From Heterodontus francisci (lineage: Eukaryota), in NCBI RefSeq assembly GCF_036365525.1, contig NC_090382.1:27314219-27378218 (forward strand): DNA of 64,000 nucleotides, read 5' to 3'. Both the position numbers and the translations under genes were made by a program. The notes under the pieces were generated by a model. That model was not told the origin of the DNA and made no database searches. It saw nothing but the letters and a program-made list of their open reading frames with translations. This document shows, piece after piece, positions 3,001-60,069 of the stretch (within the stretch, counting starts at the first letter, position 1; each line of letters starts with the position of its first letter).

Positions 3001-3972
3001 GCTGCATTAACATCTCACACTGAAGAGTGTCTGCAGAGACTCAGCGATAGGATTGCGGCTGCCCGCACCGAATTTGGCCTAAACATCAGCCTCAAGAAAA
3101 CGAGCATCATGTCACAGGATGTCAGAAATGCCCCATCCATAAATATCAGCGACCACACTCTGGAAGTGGTTCAAGAGTTCACCTACCTAGGCTCAACTAT
3201 CACCAGTAACCTGTCTCTCGATGCAGAATTCAACAAGCGCATGGGAAAGGCTTCCTCTGCTATGTCCAGACTGGCCAAGAGGGTGTGGGAAAATGGCACA
3301 CTGACACAAAACACAAAAGTCCAAGTGTATCAAGCCTGTGTCCTCAGTACCTTGCTCTACGGCAACGAGGCCTGGACAACGTACGTCAGCGACGTCTCAA
3401 TTCATTTCATCTTCGCTGCCTCCAGAGAATCCTTGGCATCAGGTGGCAGGACCGTATCTCCAACACAGAATTCCTCGAGGCGGCCAACATCCCCAACATA
3501 TGCACCCTACTAAGCCAGCGGCGCCTCAGATGGCTTGGCCATGTGAGCCGCATGGAAGATGGCAGGATCCCCAAGGACGCATTGTACAGCGAGTTCGTCA
3601 CTGGTATCAGACCCACCGGCCATCCTTGTCTCTGCTTTAAAGCCGTCTGCAAACGCGACATGAAGTCCTGTGACATTGACCACAAGTCGTGGGAGTCAGT
3701 TGCTAGCGATCGCCAGAGCTGGCGGGCAACCATGAAGGCAGGGCTAAAGCGTGGCGAGTCGAAGAGGCTTAGCAGTTGACAGGAAAAAAGACAGAAGCGC
3801 AAGGAGAGAGCCAACTGTGTAACAGCCCCGACAACCAATTTTATCTGCAGCACCTGTGGAAGAGTCTGTCACTCTATAATTGGCCTTAATAGCCACTCCA
3901 GGCGCTGCTTCACAAACCACTGACCACCTCCAGGCGCTTACCCATTGTCTCTCGAGACAAGGAGGCCAAAGA
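1..3972 (+). mobile_element. RTE-clade (BovB-like) LINE, near full length, frameshifted, in slc34a1 intron 5 in antisense orientation
   Basis: ORF 105-1664 has APE endonuclease motifs (SWNIRT, QETRL, IYAPT, LLGDFNARVG, DTDH). RT pieces follow (AFIDLTKA, LFADDAAL, FTYLGS), then a C-terminal RLRWLGHV and CxxC-H knuckle. It is closely similar to the copy at 45206-46815. Confidence 0.93.
2393..2958 (+). mobile_element. CR1 LINE 3' fragment nested in the RTE element
   Basis: CR1 ORF2 C-terminus (QFWSPHYQKDMEALERVQRRFTRMLPGL...) with a (TGTTCTT)n tail. It interrupts RTE sequence that is contiguous at 45781-45800, and GTAC flanks both sides (2389-2392, 2959-2962). Confidence 0.9.
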
Positions 3973-14829: not shown

Positions 14830-15570
14830 TGCCAGTTTTCACACAGCAAGCTCCCACAAACAGCAATGTATTAATGATGAGAATCTGTTTTATTGAGGTT
14901 GGTTGAGAGATAAACATTGACCAGGACACCAGGTGGCACTCCCCTGCTCTTTTTCAAATAGTGGCAGAGGATCTTTTACATCCACCTGAGTTGTCTGATG
15001 GTTGGCATTTAACATTTTCTTTTTATCCTTTCATGGGATGTGGGTGTCACTGGCAAGGCCAGCATTTGTTGCCCATCCCTAATTGCCCTTGAACAACTGA
15101 GTTGTTTGTTAGGCCACTTCAGAGGGCAGTCAAGAGTCAACCACATTGCTGTGGGTCTGGAGTTACATGTAGGCCAGGCTGGGTAAGGACAGCAAATTTC
15201 CTTCCCAAAAGGGCATTAGTGAATCAGATGGGTTTTTGCAACAATGGTTTCATGGTGCCAGTACTGAGACTAGCATTCAATTCCAGATCTTCTTTAATAA
15301 TTATTTGAATTTAAATTCCTCCATCTGCTGTCGTGAGATTTGAGCCTATGTCCCCAGGACATTAGCCTGGGCCTCTGGATTATTAGTCCAATGACATTAC
15401 CACTACACCAGCATCTATTTCATCCAAAAGACAACACCTCAGACTGTGCAACACTCTCCCAGTAGTGCACTGGAGTGCCAGTCTAGATGATATGCTCAAG
15501 TCCCTAGAGTGGGATATGAAACCACAGACTTCCATCTCAGAAGTGAGAGTGCGACCACTGAGCCCAGCAG
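14830..15570 (-). mobile_element. Deu-SINE split by a tRNA-headed SINE insertion
   Basis: Deu core at 14830-15015 and head half at 15415-15570 flank the SINE at 15022-15412. Confidence 0.65.
15022..15412 (-). mobile_element. tRNA-headed SINE, short internal-deletion derivative of the LINE at 54268-58893
   Basis: Shares the head and body with 58580-58893 and the terminal ~65 nt tail with 54270-54340. Confidence 0.8.
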
Positions 15571-18159: not shown

Positions 18160-20765
18160 GACAGCAATTTTACAAATTTTCAGTGGAAAGGATTGTTGGC
18201 TAGGACACCATGGGCTAACAATTGTTTTGTGCTGTTATTTGGGCATGGGGTAGTGATTCGCAATCTGCCCGCATCCCTTGAGATGGAAATGGGCAGCACG
18301 CAAATTTGGTGCTGCCATCCCATTTACCTCATTGTAGCGTAGGACCAAGTGACTGCCTCTGCAGTCAGCAGAGCTGAACAGTGTTTGCTGACAGCATGTG
18401 GTGCAACCAGCCTTCTGTTCTTCAAGACAATCTGTCCCTGCTATAAGAAAGCTGCACTGCAGGACAGGAGGCTGCTGCTGAATACTATTGCTGCACAGGG
18501 TGGAGAGAGGACTCCAGGGTCATGGATGCAGCACTGGAAGCATTAATGGTGGAGGAGGAAAGGAGGAGGGATACCATGGTTTCACAGGGTGCCAGGAAGT
18601 CCTCCTGGACAAACCTCAGAAGGGACTGGGAGCAGGTGGCCATAGTGGCCAGTTCCAGTCATCTAGACTCGAGGACCTGGCAGCAGTGCAAAGTGAAGTC
18701 CAATGATCTCACGTAGATGGTCACTGTCTGTGAATACATCTTCACATGACATCTCCTACCCACCACAGCACCAACCCCTCACACTGCTCAACGCAGCACA
18801 CCTCCATTACTCAGCCATCAGCTGGCAGTCAAGACTCAGGCCCTAACATCCAGATATGCCACCTCATCCTCACACATTTACCAATGCTGCCAACCTCACA
18901 TTGATCTCAAACAACCTAAACATACCTCCAGAAATTCAGCTACACCAGGTACATCACCCAAACACAGTGCAACACAATCATTGACATTCTGCCCTCCCTC
19001 ATGCAGGGCAAGGTGATACACAATAGAAGGCAGCAAAGCAGAGCTTGTGGGATCAAGGGCACCTGCATCTCCTGAGCCCTGTGGAGAGATGTGACAAGGC
19101 CTGTGGTATCTGGTGTGGCTGAGAAAATTCAGCATGATGATTTGTTTCTGCCTTCTGCCCTTTCTCAACTCCCAGTTGGCCCTCATCCTGCTATCTGTCA
19201 TGATAAGCAAGCCGCTGATGGTGTGACTCTGAACCTGTATGGCACTGCACTTCCCTCAATCTAACCTTTCCCTCCAGATTTTCTGTTTTCAGACACCCAA
19301 GAACTGATACCTGACCTAGGAGGAGGAGAGAAAGCAAAAACACATCACTGATAAAAAGAGATTTCACACTTGCAGCCATATCAGATTCTGGCACTGCATG
19401 TACCTTAAAGGCTAGTATAGACTTGTGATCAGTATGTGGTGAGTCACCAGGCATGAGTGGGCGGCAGCAAGACTGGGATAATGGATGGCTAATGTGCCAG
19501 CTCACAAGAGGGTGAAGTTGCAGATAAGTTCTGCTAGAGGGAACTCAGATGAGGACCTCGATGGGGCGGCATAAAACAGAATGCTGAGAAAAATACACAC
19601 AGAGGTTCTGGGTGTGTTGGCTGGCCTGTCAGACAGACTCCTGCCACTGTCAAGGAGCATGGAAGAGCCAGGCACCAACTTGGCAGAGAGTATTATGCAG
19701 AACTTGCCCTCTCTGCAGCCTCTGCTTCAACTCTCTGTTGTGCTGTACCCAAAGGCACTGCCACTGCAGCCCCCATACCTGCTGCAGCCTTTGTGTGGAT
19801 AGGTCAACTAATCCTATACCCTCCCTGTGAGGATGCAGCAATACTCCATGGGGAGGCAGTAGCATAGTGGTATTGTCACTGGACTAGTAACCCAGAGACC
19901 CAGGGTATTGCTCTGGGGACATGGATTCAAATCCCACCACAGCAGAAGGTGGAATTTGAATTCAATTAATAAATCTGGAATTAAAAAAAAAGCTAGTCTA
20001 ATGATGGCCATGAAACCATTGTCGATTGTTGTAAAAACCCATCTGGTTCACTAATGTCCATTAGGGAAGGAAATTTGCTGTCCTTACCTGGTCTGGCCTA
20101 CACGTGACTCCAGACCCACAGCAATGTGGTTGACTCTTACATGCTCTCCGAAATGGCCTAGCAAGCCACTCAGTTGTATCTAACCATTACAAAGTCAATA
20201 GCACTGTGGGTGTACCTACCGCACATGGACTGCAGCAGTTCAAGAAGGCAGCTCACCACCACCTTCTCAAGGGCAATAAGGGATGGGCAATAAATGCTGG
20301 CCTGGCCAGCAATGCCCACATCCCATGAATGAATTTTAAAAAAACACTCCCTGTTAAATCGAGGAACACCTCCAAAAAACTCCAGAGAACCTTCAGACAC
20401 TTTGCAATAGCAAGACTTCTTCAAAATCGCCTTAACTGCAAGTTGGCTGCCTGGCCCTTTAAGTAATGTTCGTGCAAGGTCCAACTTGAAGCTGAACACT
20501 TTTTCTTTTGTGAGAGACGTGTGAATTTGTTGCATAGATCTGCGGAGTGTAAATTTGGTAAATGGGCATCAAACAGTTAGGCTGTGTGATGTCTTGAAAA
20601 GATGCATTCGATTGCTTTCTGCACTCATAGGGGACCCTATGTGAGTGCCATCCTTTAGATGATGCTCAATGTGGCAGAAATGGCTGGTGGCGTAGTGCAC
20701 ACCCCAACAGTGGGTTCAGCTTTAATAGTGCCACTCCCAGCGGTGCTACTAATCCAAATTTCCCA
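18160..20765 (+). mobile_element. PIF/Harbinger-derived element with a decayed Myb/SANT ORF
   Basis: ORF 18522-18716 (DAALEALM.E.ERRRD...WEQVA......RTWQQCK.K.NDLT) is a Myb/SANT-like domain typical of the Harbinger accessory gene. 19540-19640 resembles 52910-53000. Ends are approximate. Confidence 0.7.
19850..20342 (+). mobile_element. tRNA-headed SINE, longer internal-deletion derivative of the LINE at 54268-58893
   Basis: A box (TAGCATAGTGG) and B box (GATTCAAATCC), a shared body and a ~140 nt LINE 3' tail. TSD AA(T/C)ACTCC at 19840-19847 and 20343-20350. Confidence 0.85.
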
Positions 20766-52611: not shown

Positions 52612-55466
52612 TTCACTACCTCATTCTTTGTAATGAAAACAAACTGACAATGAATACCTTTTCATTTGCTCTGAAAAAAAATAACTTTGTCTAAATTGAC
52701 CATCAAGAAAATTCATTTTGACTAAATTGACCATCAAGACTATATCACATCTCTTTTCCAACCATCATCTCAGATGCTGAGGCTGTATGTACTTTAAAGG
52801 TAACTTAGAGGTGGGTTTAGCATGTGGTGAGACACTGGGCCTACAGCCAGGGGGAAAGGGGAACGCAGGTGCCAAGTCATTGGAGGGTGAGGTTGCACAT
52901 GAGTTCTGCTGTAGAGGACTCAACTGAGGACTTCGATGTGGAGGTTTCTTGTAAAACACTGACAGATATGCACAATGAAATGCCTGGTGCATTGGCAGGC
53001 CTGCGTGGAATATTGGATGGTTTGATTGTTAAAGTTGGTTAGGATGCTTGATTTGTGATAGTTTTATTTTAGTATTGTGGTCAAGCTGTGATGGTCAGTA
53101 ACAGAGGGAAGGAAAGATGTGAGACTGTTGACCAATGGGGAATTGGGGTTGCGTTCCCTAGCATCGCAGTCAGATGAGCCAATCACGGACAGCGTGGTGG
53201 GAAAGGGAACGTGTTGGTTGCCTCCTCCCTTCCTCCTGCTCCTCAGCTGGTCGCCATATACCTGGTGGTAAGAACTGTGCCCTCATGATAGTGAGATTGT
53301 GCAGGATACAGCAGGGCACAAAGAGTCATGACACGTGTTCTGGAGAGTACTGCATGGCTCCTCCAGAGCTGTCCAGGCAGTGGAAGCGTTGCTTAAATAT
53401 CCCAGTAGTTTGCTCAATGACATTTCATTTGGAAGCCTGGTTCTTGTTATATGCATGCTGTCCACGTGTGCATGGGTTACGCACTGGAGTCATGAGCCAA
53501 GTAATCAGCAGATTGTCTTGTCACTCAGTAGCCACCCTCTGGTTTCTCGTGGCTGCTCAAATATTGCTGCTACAGTGGCCTGGCACAGAATTAAGGCATC
53601 ATGACCACTGCCAGAATACTGGGCATTGGCCTGCAGAATATATTGAGTATGGTTGCACACCACTTAGACATGGAGGGAGTGGAAACCTTTGAAGTTACGA
53701 TACATCTCTGAATTTACATGCAGCAACAGCAAAGCGATGTGTATGCAGGCAATGGTACCCTGCACCATGGGGAAGTCTGCAATCCATGCTCACTCTGCCT
53801 GCTTTTCGCTGGAAAGAGAGAATGCAATAGATTTCTCTCTTTACATACAGAGCATCTGTGAGCTCCCTTATACAACAATGGATGGCAAACTGCAATATGG
53901 TGGAGATGCCACCCGCTCCAACCTAGAAGGAGCTCGACACAAAAAAGTTCATGGCCAGGGTCACCTTTACAACCTCTGGCAATGATTTTCGTGCCCTGCT
54001 CTGAAGCTGCAAGTGGCAGATTTTAGTAAGCACCTCCTTAGAATTGGAGACATCAAGCACACTGTTCCTCGCTGAGGTTATGTGGAGAATTCTCCCTGAA
54101 GGCCTTTGATGGATATTGCCTCCTTCTGCTTGCTCTCCTCCCCCTCCTCCGTCTTCAAGCAATTTGTCCTCCGATCTGTCACCTCTGCTCATCCTCCTGT
54201 CATGTTGCAGATCAAAGGGGATCGAAACTACAGCACACACGACTAGGAACAAGTAATCAGAACAGGATTTTTTTATTCGTTCATTGGATGTGGGCATCGC
54301 TGGCTAGGCCTGCATATTGCCCATTCCTAATTTCCCTTGAGAAAGTAGTGGTGAGCTGCCTTCTTGAACCGCTGCAGTCCATGTGGAGTAGGTACACTAA
54401 CAGTGCTGTTAGGAAGGCAGTTCCAGGACAGTGAAGGAATGGCGATATAGTTCCAAGTCAGGATGGTGTGCAGCTTGAAGGGGAACATGCATGTGGTGGT
54501 GTTCCCATGCATCTGTTGCCCTTGTCCTTCTAGGTGGTGAGATCGCAGGTTTGGAAGGTGCTGTCAAAGGAGCCTTGGTGAGCTGCTGCAGTGCATCTTG
54601 TAGACGGTATACACTGCTGCCACTGTGCGCCTGTAGTGAAGGGAGTGAATGTTGAAGGTGACGGATAGGATGCCAATCAAGCAGGCTGCTTTGTCTGGAA
54701 TGGTGTCAAGCTTCTTGAGTGTTGTTGGAGCTGCACCCATCCAGGCAAGTGGAGAATATTCCATCACACTCCTGACTTGTGCCTTGTAGATGGTGGACAG
54801 GCATTGGGGAGCCAGGAGGTGAGTTACTCACCACAGAACTCCCAGCCTCTGACCTGCTCTTGTAGTCACAGCATTTATGCGGCTGGTCCAGTTCAGTTTC
54901 TGGTCAATGCTAACCCCAGGATGTTGACAGTGGGGGATTCAGCGATGGTAATGCTATCGAACATCAATGGGAGATGGCTAGATTCTCTTTTGTTTGAGAT
55001 AGTCATTGCCTGGCACTTATGTGGCACAAATGTTACTTGTCACTTATTAGCCCAAGCTTGGATGTTATCTAGGTCTTGCTGCATCTGGGCGCAGGCTGCT
55101 TCAGTATCTGAGGAGTCGTGAATGGTGCTGAATATTGTGCAATCATCAGTGAACATCCCCACTTCTGACCTTATGGCGGAGGGAAGGTCATTGATGTAGC
55201 AGCTGAAGATGGTTGGGCCTAGGACACTACCCTGAGGAACCCCTGCAGTGATGGCCTGGGACTGAGATGATTGACCTTCAACAACCACAACCATCTTCCC
55301 TTGCGCTAGGTATGACCCAACCAGTGGAGAGTCTTCCCCCTAATTCCCATTGACTTCAGTTTTGCTAGGGCTCCTTGATACCATACTCGATCAAATGCTG
55401 CCTTGATGTCAAGGGCCATCACTCTCACCTCACCTCTGGAGTTCTCTCTTTTGTCCATGTTTGAAC

Positions 55467-57357
55467 ACAAGAGCACAAGAAATAGGAGCAGAAGTAAACC
55501 GTATAGTCCATCGAGCCTGCTCCACCATCCAATATGATCATGTGATTCTTATTCTCACAATCATGGCTGATCTTGGGCTTCAATTCCAATGCCTGCTCAC
55601 CATATCCCTTGATTCCCTGCGAGAATAAAAATCTACATATCCCAGCCTTAAATGTAATCAATGATGGAGCATCCACAACCCTCTGGGGTAGAGAATTCCA
55701 AAGATTCACAACCCTTTGAGTGAAGTAATTGCTCCTCATCTCAGAGCTGATTGATTGACCCCTAATCATGAGACTGTGTCCCCGTGTTCTAAATTCACTG
55801 ACCAGTGGGAACAATCTCTCAGCTTCTATCCTATCAAGCTGTTTCAGAATCTTGTATTTCTCAATTAGATCGCCTCTCATTCTTCTAAACTCCAAAGAAT
55901 ATAGGCCCAATGTACTCAGTCTCTCATCATAGGACAACCCCCTCATCCCAGCGACCAATTTAGTAAATCTTCACTGCACCGCCTCCAGTGCAAGTATATC
56001 CTTTCTTAAATGTGGAGACCAAAACTGCACACAGTATTCCAGCTGCGGTCTCACGAAAGCCCTACAATTTTAGTAAGACTTCTTTATTCCTGTACTCCAA
56101 TCCCTTTGCAATAAAGGCCAACATGCCATTTGCCTTCCTAATAGCCTGCTGTACCTTCATGTTAACTTTGTGTGTTCCGTGTACAAGTACCCCACAAGTC
56201 TGTCTGAACATCAACACTTACCAGTTTCACACCTTTTAAAAAATATTCTGCTTTTCTATTTTTACGACCAAAATGAACAACTTCACACTTTCCTACATTA
56301 TACTTCATTTGCCATCTTATTGCCCACTCACTTAACCAGTCTATATCTGTTTGCAGCCTCTCAACATTGTGCCTGCAGCTTACCTTTCCACTGAGCTTTG
56401 TATCATCAGCAAACCTAGATACATTAGTCTCTGTCTCTTCATCCAAGTCATTAATATAGAGTGTAAATAGTTGAGGCCCCAACACTGAACCTTGCAGCAC
56501 CCCACTATTTACTGCCTGCCAACTTGAAAATGCCCCATTTATGCTCACTCTTTGCTTCCTGTCTGTTAACCAATCCTTTATCCACGCTAATATATTACCC
56601 CCAAGAGCATGAGCCCTTATCTTGCCTATTAATCTTTTATGTGGCACCTTATCTAATGCCTTTTGAAAATCTAGGTATACGACATCTACTGGTTCCCCTT
56701 TATCTACCCCACTCGTTACATCCTCAAAAACTCTAATAAATTTATCAAACAGGATCTCCCTTTAGTAAAACCATGCTGACTTGTTCTCATCATACTATGC
56801 TTTTCCAAGTGCAATGTTAAGACTTCCTTAATAATAGTTTCCAGCATCTTCCCAACAACTGATGTTAGGCTAACTGGCCTGTAGTTCTCTGTTTTCTCTC
56901 TACCTCCTTTCTTGAAAAGTGGCATAACATTTGCCAACTTCCACTCTGACAGGACCAGTACTGAATCTAAGGAATTCTGGAAAATCATTGCCAGTGCATC
57001 CGTTATCTCTACAGCTATCTCTTTTAGAATCCTAGGATGTAGGCCATCTGGTCCCAGGGACTTGTCAGATTTTAGTCCCTCAAGTTTCTCCAATACTTTT
57101 TCTCGACTGATATCAATCTCCTTAATTTCCTCACTCTTTTTAGCCCCTAGGTTACTGCGTATTTCTGGTATGGAAATTATGTCTTCTACTGTGAAGACAG
57201 ACACAAAATATTTGTTCAATGCCTCTGCCATTTCCTCATTCCCCGTGAAGATCTCTCCTGTCTCTACCTCTAAGAGACCAACATCTACTTTAGCTGCTCT
57301 CTTCCTTTTTATGTACTTATAAAAACTCTTACAATCTGTTTTTATATTGCTGGCTAT
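55467..57357 (-). mobile_element. Canonical CR1 LINE (5' truncated) nested in the tRNA-headed LINE
   Basis: GPDGLHPRILKE, NYRPVSLTS, QHGF, QGSVLGP and FADDTK with a CR1 3' UTR. The host LINE resumes across tgtttgaac / tgttggac. Confidence 0.92.
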
Positions 57358-57647
57358 TGTTGGACCAAGGCTATAACGAGGTCAGGAGCTGAGTGGCTCT
57401 GGTGGATCCCCAACTGAGCGTCAGCGAGCAGGTTATTGCTGAGCCAGTGCCCCTTGTTAGAACTGTCAATGACCCCTTCCATCACTTTGCTGACGATCGA
57501 GAGTAGACTGAAAGGGCAGTAATTGGCTGGATAGGATTTGTCCTGCTTTTTGTGTATAGAACATAACTTGACAATATTCCATTTTGTCAGCTAGATGCCT
57601 CCTGAGGTCCCCAGCATTACAGATGCCAGTCTTCAGCCAATCTGATT

Positions 57648-57878
57648 GTATCTATTTGATATTAAGAAATGGCTGAAGGCACTGGGTACTGTAAAGGCTA
57701 TGAGCCCTGACAACATTCCGACAGCAGTATTGAAGACTTATGCTCCAGAACAGCTTGGAAAGGGGCATGGCTAGTTCTGAAGCATAAGTATTCATAACTA
57801 CAGCCAGAATGTTGTCAGGGCCCATAGCCTTTGCAGGATCCAGTGCCTTCAGCCATTTCTTGATAACAAATGGATTCA
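57648..57878. repeat. Fold-back inverted repeat, ~104-bp arms with a 22-bp spacer
   Basis: 57648-57751 is the imperfect reverse complement of 57774-57878. Confidence 0.9.
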
Positions 57879-60069
57879 AGGACTGTTCGGTGACAGATGC
57901 ATCTGCGACAGGTAGATTGGTGAGGACGAGGTCAAGTAGGTTTTTCTCTCTTGTTGGTTCTCTCACCACCTGCCATAGACCATGTCTCGCAGCTATGTCT
58001 TTTAGGACTCGGCCAGCTCGGTCAGTACTGGTGCTACCGCGCCACTCTTGGTGATGAACATTGAAATCCCCCACCCAGAGTACATTCTGTGCCCATGCTA
58101 CCCTCACTGTTTCTTCCAATTGGCAGTCAACATGGCGAAGCACTGATTCATCAGCTGAGGAGTGGGTGGGGTGGGGGCGGTAGGTGGTATTAAGCAGAAG
58201 GTTTCCATGCCCATATTTGACCATATTGAGACTTCATGGAGTCTGGAGTCAATGTTCAGGACTCCCAGGGCAACTCCCTCCTGACTGTATACACTGTGTC
58301 GCCACCTCTGCTGGGTCTGTTCTGCCGGTGGGACAGGCCATACCCAGGGATGGTGATGGTGGTGTCAGGGACATTGTCTGTAAGGTATGATTCCGTGAGT
58401 ATGACTATATCAGGCTGTTGCTTGTCTAGTTGTGGGACAGCTCTCCCAACTTTGACACAGGCCCTGCGATGTTAGTAAGGAGGACTTTGAAGGGTATGCC
58501 ATTGTCATTTCCAGTGTCTAGGTCATTGCCGGGTGGTCCATCCAGTTTTATTCCTTTTCTTGGGCTTTGTTGTGGTTTGATACAACTGAGTGGCTTGCTA
58601 GGCCAGTTCAGGAGGCATTTAAGAGTCAACCACATTGCTGTGAGTCTGGAGTCACATGTAGGTAAGGACAGCAGATTTCCTTCCCTAAAGGACGTAAGTG
58701 AACCAGATGGATTTTTACAACAATCGATAATGGTTTCATGGTCACCATTAGACTAGCTTTTAATTCCAGATTTATTAATTGAATTCAAATTTCTCTATCT
58801 GCCATGGTAGGTTTGAACCCATGTCCCCAGAGCATTAGCCTGGGGCTCTGGGTTACTAGTTCAGTGACATTACCACTAAGCCACCGCCTCCCCAATCCTT
58901 GAGTTGAAAACTAAGGCTTTGACCACATGCATTTCCACACCCTGTAAACTTCACCAACTTTAAGCGGCAGTACAAACCACCAAATGCTTCAAGTAGCTCA
59001 GCAGCAGCCAGTAGAAAGTAATCAACAAATAACCTGAATGTAGTTGATGATCCCTTTAAATAGGACTGATGTGGAGTTTTTCCTGCTGCTGAACATATGT
59101 TCAGCTCTGTGAGGTTAAGAAAGGATGTTAGCTGCAGGATTGACATCAAAATGGTACCACTAGAGCCAAATTGTTTTAGACTGACTGATCTCACAATCTG
59201 CCTATTCTGCATACTTCCAGTATACAGTCCCAGCACCAAAGCTACAACCTACCCAAAATGATGTCTGGTACAGCCCACAGCAGAAGTATGTGTGCATTGC
59301 ACAAATGCCATTTTCGACAGGAAGCAACACTCATAGTGCCACAAATACAGACACTATGCTACCATATTTTGCAGAAAATCTGTTTTCGTGTTATTGGTTG
59401 AGGGATAAATATTGGCTAGGACAGCATCACAAATTTATGATGAAAGGTCACAGACCTGAAATGTTAACTCTGCGTCTCTCTCCACAGGTGCTGCCAGACC
59501 TAATGAGTATTTCCAGCATTTCTTGTTTTTATTTCAGACTTCCAGCATCTGCAGTATTTTGCTTTCATAACACAAATTTCTTGTTTGTTTTCAAATATTG
59601 CTTTGTCCTCCATAGAATATTCCATCATTGAGTTACCTCCACATCATATATTGCAAAGAGGTTTCTGTTACATTAAAATAAATGATTCATAAAATGTAGA
59701 GAACTTTTGAGCCAGGGAGCCATGATAGAATTATATTGATATATAAAATAATAGCTAGAAGGTTAATATTCACTTTTCCTGATGAGTCCCTAAGTCATAT
59801 AGTTCAATCAATCCCCAGATAGAATCAGAGAATTTTAGAACATAGAAGGAATCATTTGGCCCCTCAAGCCTGTGTTAATTCTGAAAGAGCCATCCGCTTA
59901 GATTTATTTTTCCACCCTTTCCCACTAACCTTTCTGACTTCCCATCTGCGGTGAGTGAATTGGTTTTAATAGCTGCTGAGCCATTTACAGTAGTCCCTTC
60001 GCATCATGTGAGGGGGGAGCTTGCTGGCTCTGATCATTATCCAGCATTCTATATTGCAAAGTACACATG

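Follow-up and report, generated by a model that had tools for sequence, protein, structure and literature searches.

The window analysed here, a 64,000-nt stretch of the Heterodontus francisci genome (NCBI RefSeq assembly GCF_036365525.1, contig NC_090382.1, positions 27,314,219 to 27,378,218), contains on its minus strand a decayed copy (58893-54268) of a 3.29-kb long interspersed element (LINE), made up of a tRNA-like head, a body, what remains of the APE endonuclease domain and of that for reverse transcriptase (RT), and a short A-tail. Coordinates are given as positions of the whole window, and the parts of the element are listed in Table 1. The copy is ~84-87% identical to other copies of its family and APE and RT domains were both detected in it; it has lost ~690 nt after the APE domain and carries an inverted duplication at 57646-57879, both of which were overlooked in the first-pass annotation of this DNA. 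Around the nested CR1, ~10 nt of the host element overlap on both sides, possibly a worn target-site duplication (TSD). In full form the family consists of a tRNA-Thr-like head with A and B boxes, one open reading frame (ORF) encoding APE and RT, and a short A-tail. Judged by its sequence, the window element belongs, as a decayed member, to the already known Zenon family of elasmobranch LINEs.

Table 1. Parts of the Zenon element in the window and related short elements (UTR, untranslated region; SINE, short interspersed element).
Feature	Position	Strand	Remarks
tRNA-Thr-like head	58795..58893	-	Begins 10 nt ahead of the A box; variable-loop region with a 20-nt insert; 5' end common to most full-length copies
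A box TGGCTTAGTGG	58873..58883	-	Sequence as in window copy; variants exist in the family
B box GGTTCAAACC	58810..58819	-	One base shorter in window copy than in other copies
Body, common with 395-bp SINE	58584..58794	-	Several short upstream ORFs, including that of ATG 58635; last 150 nt constrained between lineages
TAG in APE frame	58598..58600	-	TAG in 73/100 copies; family frame open from here to ORF end
Arg-rich lead-in and APE endonuclease	57892..58597	-	KVLLTNI starts at 58488; frameshifted in window copy
Rearranged middle	57598..57879	-	Deletion of ~690 nt; inversion and partial duplication of one segment (106-nt arms, 85%)
RT, N-terminal part up to nested insertion	57358..57599	-	
Nested 5'-truncated canonical CR1	55467..57357	-	Same orientation as host element
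Remaining RT and C-terminus	54327..55466	-	Stop at 54329-54327
Short 3' UTR and A-tail	54268..54326	-	Last 75 nt of the element equal the tail of the SINE
Partner SINE copy	15020-15410	-	~80% identical to LINE head
Internally deleted derivative	19850-20334	+	Other junction (element nt 1-346 joined to 3147-end); similar at L396, L405, L017 and L021

The first-pass annotation had described a tRNA-like head with A and B boxes at the 5' end of the element and no room for an ORF1, and had proposed to check whether most full-length copies carry the head. Both descriptions agree with the present data, in which the head starts at 58893 (-), the boxes were located, and neither an ORF1 nor any other 5' UTR was found. 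A query composed of the head and the start of APE gave 12,142 candidate loci in the genome, and all 40 scored loci spanned the query, with one further partial match; the extent from head to tail was ~3.27 kb in 18 of 20 fetched copies. A pattern count gave 3,974 exact body-to-ORF junctions, and APE was reached in 28 of the first 30. For sampling independent of the head, an RT protein search was used, from which 40 of 85 matches were fetched, 20 of them picked for long open frames. Nineteen of these 40 copies start within 7 nt of the first base of the head and two at 25-37, while the others are 5'-truncated at scattered points (10 begin at 41-430 and nine further in); no alternative 5' sequence was common to the upstream flanks at the junction among the 40. 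Copies carrying heads diverge by 2-19% (1.7-19% from the column majority, 119 copies), and a sample of 40 unselected 10-kb stretches had 36,702 of its 400,000 bases occupied by the family, with a 3' bias of the usual kind. Old and young lineages alike have the head with its boxes as their fixed 5' end, a family trait and not a chance junction. That a SINE and a LINE met by chance, or that the LINE inserts into SINE copies, would fit a SINE with the same head being present in similar numbers (3,602 exact body-to-tail junctions by pattern count). These origins are hardly credible: thousands of identical junctions exist, flanks are unrelated with no SINE remainder behind the tail, the same structure occurs in five other species, and the counts already refute a chance junction. 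The counts likewise set the family apart from one-off chimeras of small RNAs and LINEs, which occupy a single or few loci. The single TSDs around copies that the first-pass annotation had expected were not recovered, as no match of at least 6 nt was seen in any of 14 full-length copies, a result equal to that of mismatched pairs.

Aligned to the host tRNA-Thr with a 20-nt insert, the head scored z 6.4-7.3, compared with z 2.1-3.6 against tRNA-Lys; the comparison covered 30 loci of 63 matches with only Thr and Lys types among them, which makes the isotype provisional. ARAGORN and Rfam, run on the window, did not call the head a tRNA. Young copies mostly have TGGCRTAGTGG as A box and GGTTCRAATCC as B box, and the variation of the boxes in old copies falls at positions tolerated by the Pol III (RNA polymerase III) consensus. 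None of the 18 differences between young and old lineages in the head (nt 9-100) falls at the 11 core box positions, a conservation that is suggestive only (p 0.11). The 5' end lies 10 nt before the A box and 3 nt before tRNA position 1, where a transcription start would be expected rather than an RNase P cut. As in SINE2 elements, the head is tRNA-derived with A and B boxes; short and non-coding, as SINE2 are, is only the 395-bp partner and not the 3.29-kb LINE with its ORF. MetaSINE has a 66-bp Meta domain directly behind a tRNA-Thr-like head; a comparison of the present element with bivalve rows, made by eye, gave no match. Among the 30 host loci, 15 were identical, high-scoring tRNA-Thr(TGT) genes spread over several contigs.

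A search with the head alone returned 30 loci; the LINE follows in 12, its last 75 nt follow directly in 15, and neither is the case in three. The head joined to the LINE tail forms a SINE of ~395 bp, which we propose to be the LINE's head and tail without the ORF, riding on the enzymes of the LINE. A tree built from 84 heads showed those of the SINE and those of the LINE interleaved from old to young, and a single SINE clade was rejected (p-AU 0.0009; a quick tree with only two starred branches); therefore, heads have been exchanged or the SINE arose repeatedly. SacSINE1, a Deu SINE, is 463 bp long with a Deu domain and an L2-type tail; the partner SINE is ~395 bp long with a Zenon tail.

The first-pass counts of T-runs were exact: on the sense strand, the element's own 2,728 nt hold no run of four T (T4) and 11 of four A (A4), and the nested 1,891-nt CR1 holds 12 T4. 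The lack of internal oligo-T on the sense strand is as would be expected of a Pol III unit. The comparison with codon-shuffled controls and other LINEs, suggested at the same time, gave a depletion against both. Per near-intact copy (n=10), T4 numbered 0-1; codon shuffling predicted 2.1-2.7 (p 0.05-0.25), and a strand-symmetric null predicted 3.9-5.1 (p 0.002-0.03). Where a copy had no T4 at all, with 2.1-2.5 predicted by codon shuffling, the deficit was borderline (p 0.05-0.09). Runs of three T (T3) numbered 4-8 per copy versus 11-14 after codon shuffling (p <0.002 in nine of the 10 copies, 0.012 in one), and A4, C4 and G4 were normal in the same copies; being one family, the copies count as one observation. 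Pooling 91 Zenon ORF pieces of at least 250 aa gave ratios to the codon-shuffle expectation of 0.43 for T3, 0.15 for T4 and 1.15 for A4. Comparison ORFs of the genome had T3/T4 ratios of 0.88/1.22 (CR1 of the nested type) and 0.98/0.88 (other RT ORFs), and an RTE-like ORF of matching base composition had 10 T3 versus 10.4 expected. In 59 ORFs of elements without long terminal repeats (non-LTR; at least 400 aa, 80 metagenome loci), the T3 ratio was 0.73-1.23 versus 0.36-0.43 here. A homologue from outside the family with 36% identity had normal T-runs (T4 20 versus 19.1) and no visible head. No column was occupied by T4 in more than 6 of 107 copies, and TT, TTT and four-T-in-five windows were all depleted, the last with 1 versus 13.3 and 4 versus 12.0. 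Pyrimidine tracts, acceptor- and donor-like splice sites and AATAAA were not depleted, which speaks against avoidance of splicing. Of the 10 near-intact ORFs, nine lack the leucine codon TTA and one has it a single time. T-runs before the A-tail were considered as a Pol III terminator and discarded, as those of the LINE were not above background (7/45 versus 62/545, p 0.47); the SINE had 5/15 (p 0.024), and the terminator reading was not counted.

An open frame of 937 aa with APE and RT was obtained for the family, in which APE starts ~430 nt from the 5' end and no majority stop occurs in 929 codon columns; open frames with both domains reach 907-945 codons in the best natural copies. Shared variants in 89 headed copies, with CpG sites excluded, comprised 82 synonymous, 34 nonsynonymous and one stop (ratio of nonsynonymous to synonymous polymorphism, pN/pS, 0.13), compared with a pN/pS of 1.08 for private variants and 0.23 for shared variants of APE alone. 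Between young and old headed lineages, the corresponding ratio of substitutions (dN/dS) was ~0.10. The ORF of the headed lineages, APE included, is under purifying selection, as it is in an autonomous LINE whose ORF is kept in a propagating lineage. The family may now be inactive, because none of the copies was confirmed as fully intact between head and stop and divergence is ~2% in the youngest ones.

For the start of translation, the first-pass proposal was that ATG 58635 runs in frame into APE. This holds for the window copy, with its 14-nt deletion that is absent from the other members of a 33-row alignment, and fails for the family, where only 6 of 66 copies have the ATG in frame, as against 55 out of frame and five unscored; in most young copies it opens a frame of 19 codons. 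The APE frame of most copies reads ATG GCC TAG ~40 codons upstream of APE, and 11 of 100 copies have CAG at the stop position. In the copy alignment no shared in-frame AUG precedes APE and ~10 upstream AUGs open short frames, the first in-frame ATG common to most copies being at column 1157, ~240 codons past the APE start. As APE is under selection, translation has to begin at a non-AUG codon or by readthrough, and this applies to an RNA made by either polymerase. In this genome, the spacing from TAG to APE is kept between old and young lineages although an A-rich stretch has diverged, which hints that the lead-in is read. Loss of the TAG (21/100 copies with another first base) was rejected as a sign of selection for an open frame, as the site varies in the SINE too.

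Zenon elements have been described from elasmobranchs, coelacanth and hagfish as lacking ORF1 and having poly-A tails (PMC13343379, GBE 2026), and the elasmobranch Zenon-1 of the CR1 group resembles the present family in its single ORF, missing ORF1 and poly-A tail. The same single APE-RT ORF without ORF1 and the poly-A tail were found here. Published Zenon-1 rows of CarCar, RhiTyp, ScyCan, HypSab and SquAca (3,244-3,314 characters; PMC13343379) match head, body and lead-in, and their lengths agree; the comparison was made with motif matches and by eye on the first 400 nt of each row. On this basis, the head is present on 7/7 elasmobranch rows from the five species and on 0/3 hagfish and coelacanth rows. 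The nearest proteins found had 36-40% identity and no clade names. The words 'tRNA' and 'promoter' do not occur in the main text of PMC13343379, nor 'tRNA' in its supplement, and the available parts of that source mention neither the head nor the T-run deficit, the missing AUG or the partner SINE. A tRNA-headed shark LINE or a Pol III LINE was not found described in the open literature, a search with Repbase, Dfam and subscription papers outside its scope, nor in the accessible text of PMC1513397, PMC2746220, PMC11481361 and PMC5499810. The tRNA head, the T-run deficit, the missing start codon and the head-sharing SINE thus appear to be unreported.

Several known systems share single traits with this family, as far as the consulted parts of the sources describe them. 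The lepidopteran Zenon and its derivative Persaeus (PMC6740152) are likewise a Zenon LINE with a short element made of its 5' and 3' ends, but Persaeus has neither tRNA homology nor a Pol III promoter, whereas here LINE and derivative have both. SINE2, including bipartite SINEs of the Bov-tA type, share the tRNA head, boxes, body, LINE tail and scarcity of T-runs and encode no protein, whereas here the same head sits on an ORF; in Kojima's model, loss of the ORF precedes addition of the head (PMC5786205). RTE-1_DAn and relatives are reported as LINEs that contain a sequence resembling a tRNA, and may be a precedent, although of the RTE clade (PMC5786205). Chimeras of tRNAs or other small RNAs with L1 also have a tRNA fused 5' of a LINE, but they comprise 21 loci, mostly with half tRNAs and in antisense, and form no propagating family (PMC13174262). 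Cassandra, Helenus and Ajax (TRIMp3) carry a Pol III promoter in a retrotransposon other than a SINE; they are LTR elements 311-1,263 bp long that lack an ORF and are non-autonomous (PMC10886601).

[quoted passage not shown] We consider it fairly probable that the present family is an autonomous LINE transcribed from its tRNA head by Pol III, with the 3.3-kb RNA serving as mRNA and template; the head together with the strand-specific loss of T-runs makes Pol III the simplest reading. An ancestral Zenon would have gained a SINE-type head by template switch before the split of sharks and rays. Pol III would start 10 nt before the A box, read through the element since internal oligo-T terminators were purged, pass the A-tail and stop, as for Alu, at the first T-run of the flank. 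One 3.3-kb RNA would likely be both mRNA and template, and reverse transcription would prime on the A-tail. The weakest step is translation of an uncapped RNA, for which a non-scanning route with a non-AUG codon or readthrough of the TAG is proposed, because ~10 upstream AUGs and no shared in-frame AUG precede APE.

A number of observations weigh against transcription by Pol III or against such a start. Taken by itself the T4 deficit is borderline per copy, the sense strand is T-poor overall (T 0.20), and variants creating T-runs are not measurably purged (T4, 0/67 shared versus 11/690 private, where the test has almost no power; T3, 5/67 versus 55/690). Conservation of the boxes between lineages does not go beyond p 0.11, and Pol II too would fit the AATAAA located 40 nt ahead of the tail, which 77 of 81 copies retain. 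SINE length (100-700 bp) is described as limited by Pol III processivity (PMC10886601, in the part available), and the efficiency of Pol III RNAs as mRNAs has been doubted (PMC6023835). As for the start, amino-acid constraint was found in no frame of the lead-in, and the RhiTyp and SquAca-1 rows shift its frame by 4 and 1 nt, read by eye. Rfam returned neither an internal ribosome entry site nor a ribozyme for a young head and the closest outside homologue, and the body did not fold beyond chance (z 0.2 and 0.1, single and alignment folds). Coverage of the element by RNA-labelled contigs has a profile resembling copy number and indicates neither start nor polymerase.

Alternatively, the head might be a fixed 5' UTR of a Pol II transcript with its promoter in the head or body, an unlikely arrangement, if one to be taken seriously. 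The boxes would then be kept through head swaps with a Pol III SINE, as the interleaved heads would permit, and T-runs lost for other reasons, for example export, stability or elongation of the RNA. Pol II is the rule for LINEs (PMC10886601, same part), the AATAAA near the tail is conserved, and body nt 171-320 are constrained, with 8/150 differences between lineages versus 70/554 at third positions of the ORF. Such a transcript does not account well for a deficit specific to T-runs of the sense strand that spans the 2.8-kb ORF, absent from the SINE, while splice-like and poly(A) motifs are not depleted and no other tested LINE has the deficit; ~10 upstream AUGs without an in-frame start are ill-suited to cap-dependent scanning too. 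It is less likely still that the labour is split, with Pol III making the template and the protein coming in trans from capped Pol II read-through or spliced host transcripts. The missing AUG and the T-run deficit would both be accounted for without uncapped translation, and the abundance of the family suffices for it to lie within many transcripts. However, a dN/dS near 0.1 in headed lineages speaks for cis preference, which help in trans would dilute, and 5' host exons were seen in none of the 40 RT-selected copies. That a ribozyme or RNase P cuts a co-transcript at the head, in the manner of R2 and RTE elements, seems very improbable: it would explain the precise 5' ends, and self-cleaving 5' ribozymes are reported for several LINE clades (PMC5786205, in the sections available), but for the HDV-like or hammerhead fold of ribozyme-headed LINEs there was neither an Rfam match nor a fold signal, although diverged ribozymes can escape Rfam, the 5' end precedes tRNA position 1 by 3 nt with no acceptor stem predicted, and the loss of T-runs would stay unexplained.

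If transcription by Pol III holds, an autonomous LINE on a tRNA promoter would break the division of Pol II for LINEs and Pol III for SINEs, Pol III could make a translated RNA of 3.3 kb in a vertebrate, and the family would offer a natural element for cap-independent and AUG-independent translation. A link to the loss of ORF1 is possible, as in human cells RNAs driven by Pol III were retrotransposed without ORF1p, whereas a Pol II Alu needed it (PMC2666806, from the part consulted), with the caveat that Zenon lacks ORF1 in all phyla. The family is also a living case of a SINE and a LINE that share and exchange one head.

Further observations concern the body and the ORF. Most copies have an AATAAA directly after the head (58770-58776 region (-), element nt 115-125), as do, by eye, 6 of the 7 published elasmobranch rows, which would be unusual in a Pol II mRNA. 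The end of the body, GGCCTAGCAAGCCAC (element nt 300-320), resembles the tail GGCCTAGCCAGCGAC (last 35 nt) and may be the remnant of an older tail. By eye, the 11-mer TCCTTTAGGGA is common to the body (element nt 200-212 in copy L107) and the 5' region of EptBur_Zenon-2, so that the body could be an old Zenon 5' UTR, or the 11-mer could be chance; the motif GGCGGATGAG...GGCCATC is common to hagfish Zenon-2 and the outside homologue L171 (389-482), again by eye. Fragments of the element ORF with 55-83% identity occur in annotated shark and ray proteins, five of which (P0005, P0043, P0049, P0058 and P0062) hold fragments with 71-83% identity; these are likely annotation errors or exonised copies. 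L161 (G000:C25:30000001-30010000) holds a tandem repeat of 10 kb in which both strands have very long open frames.

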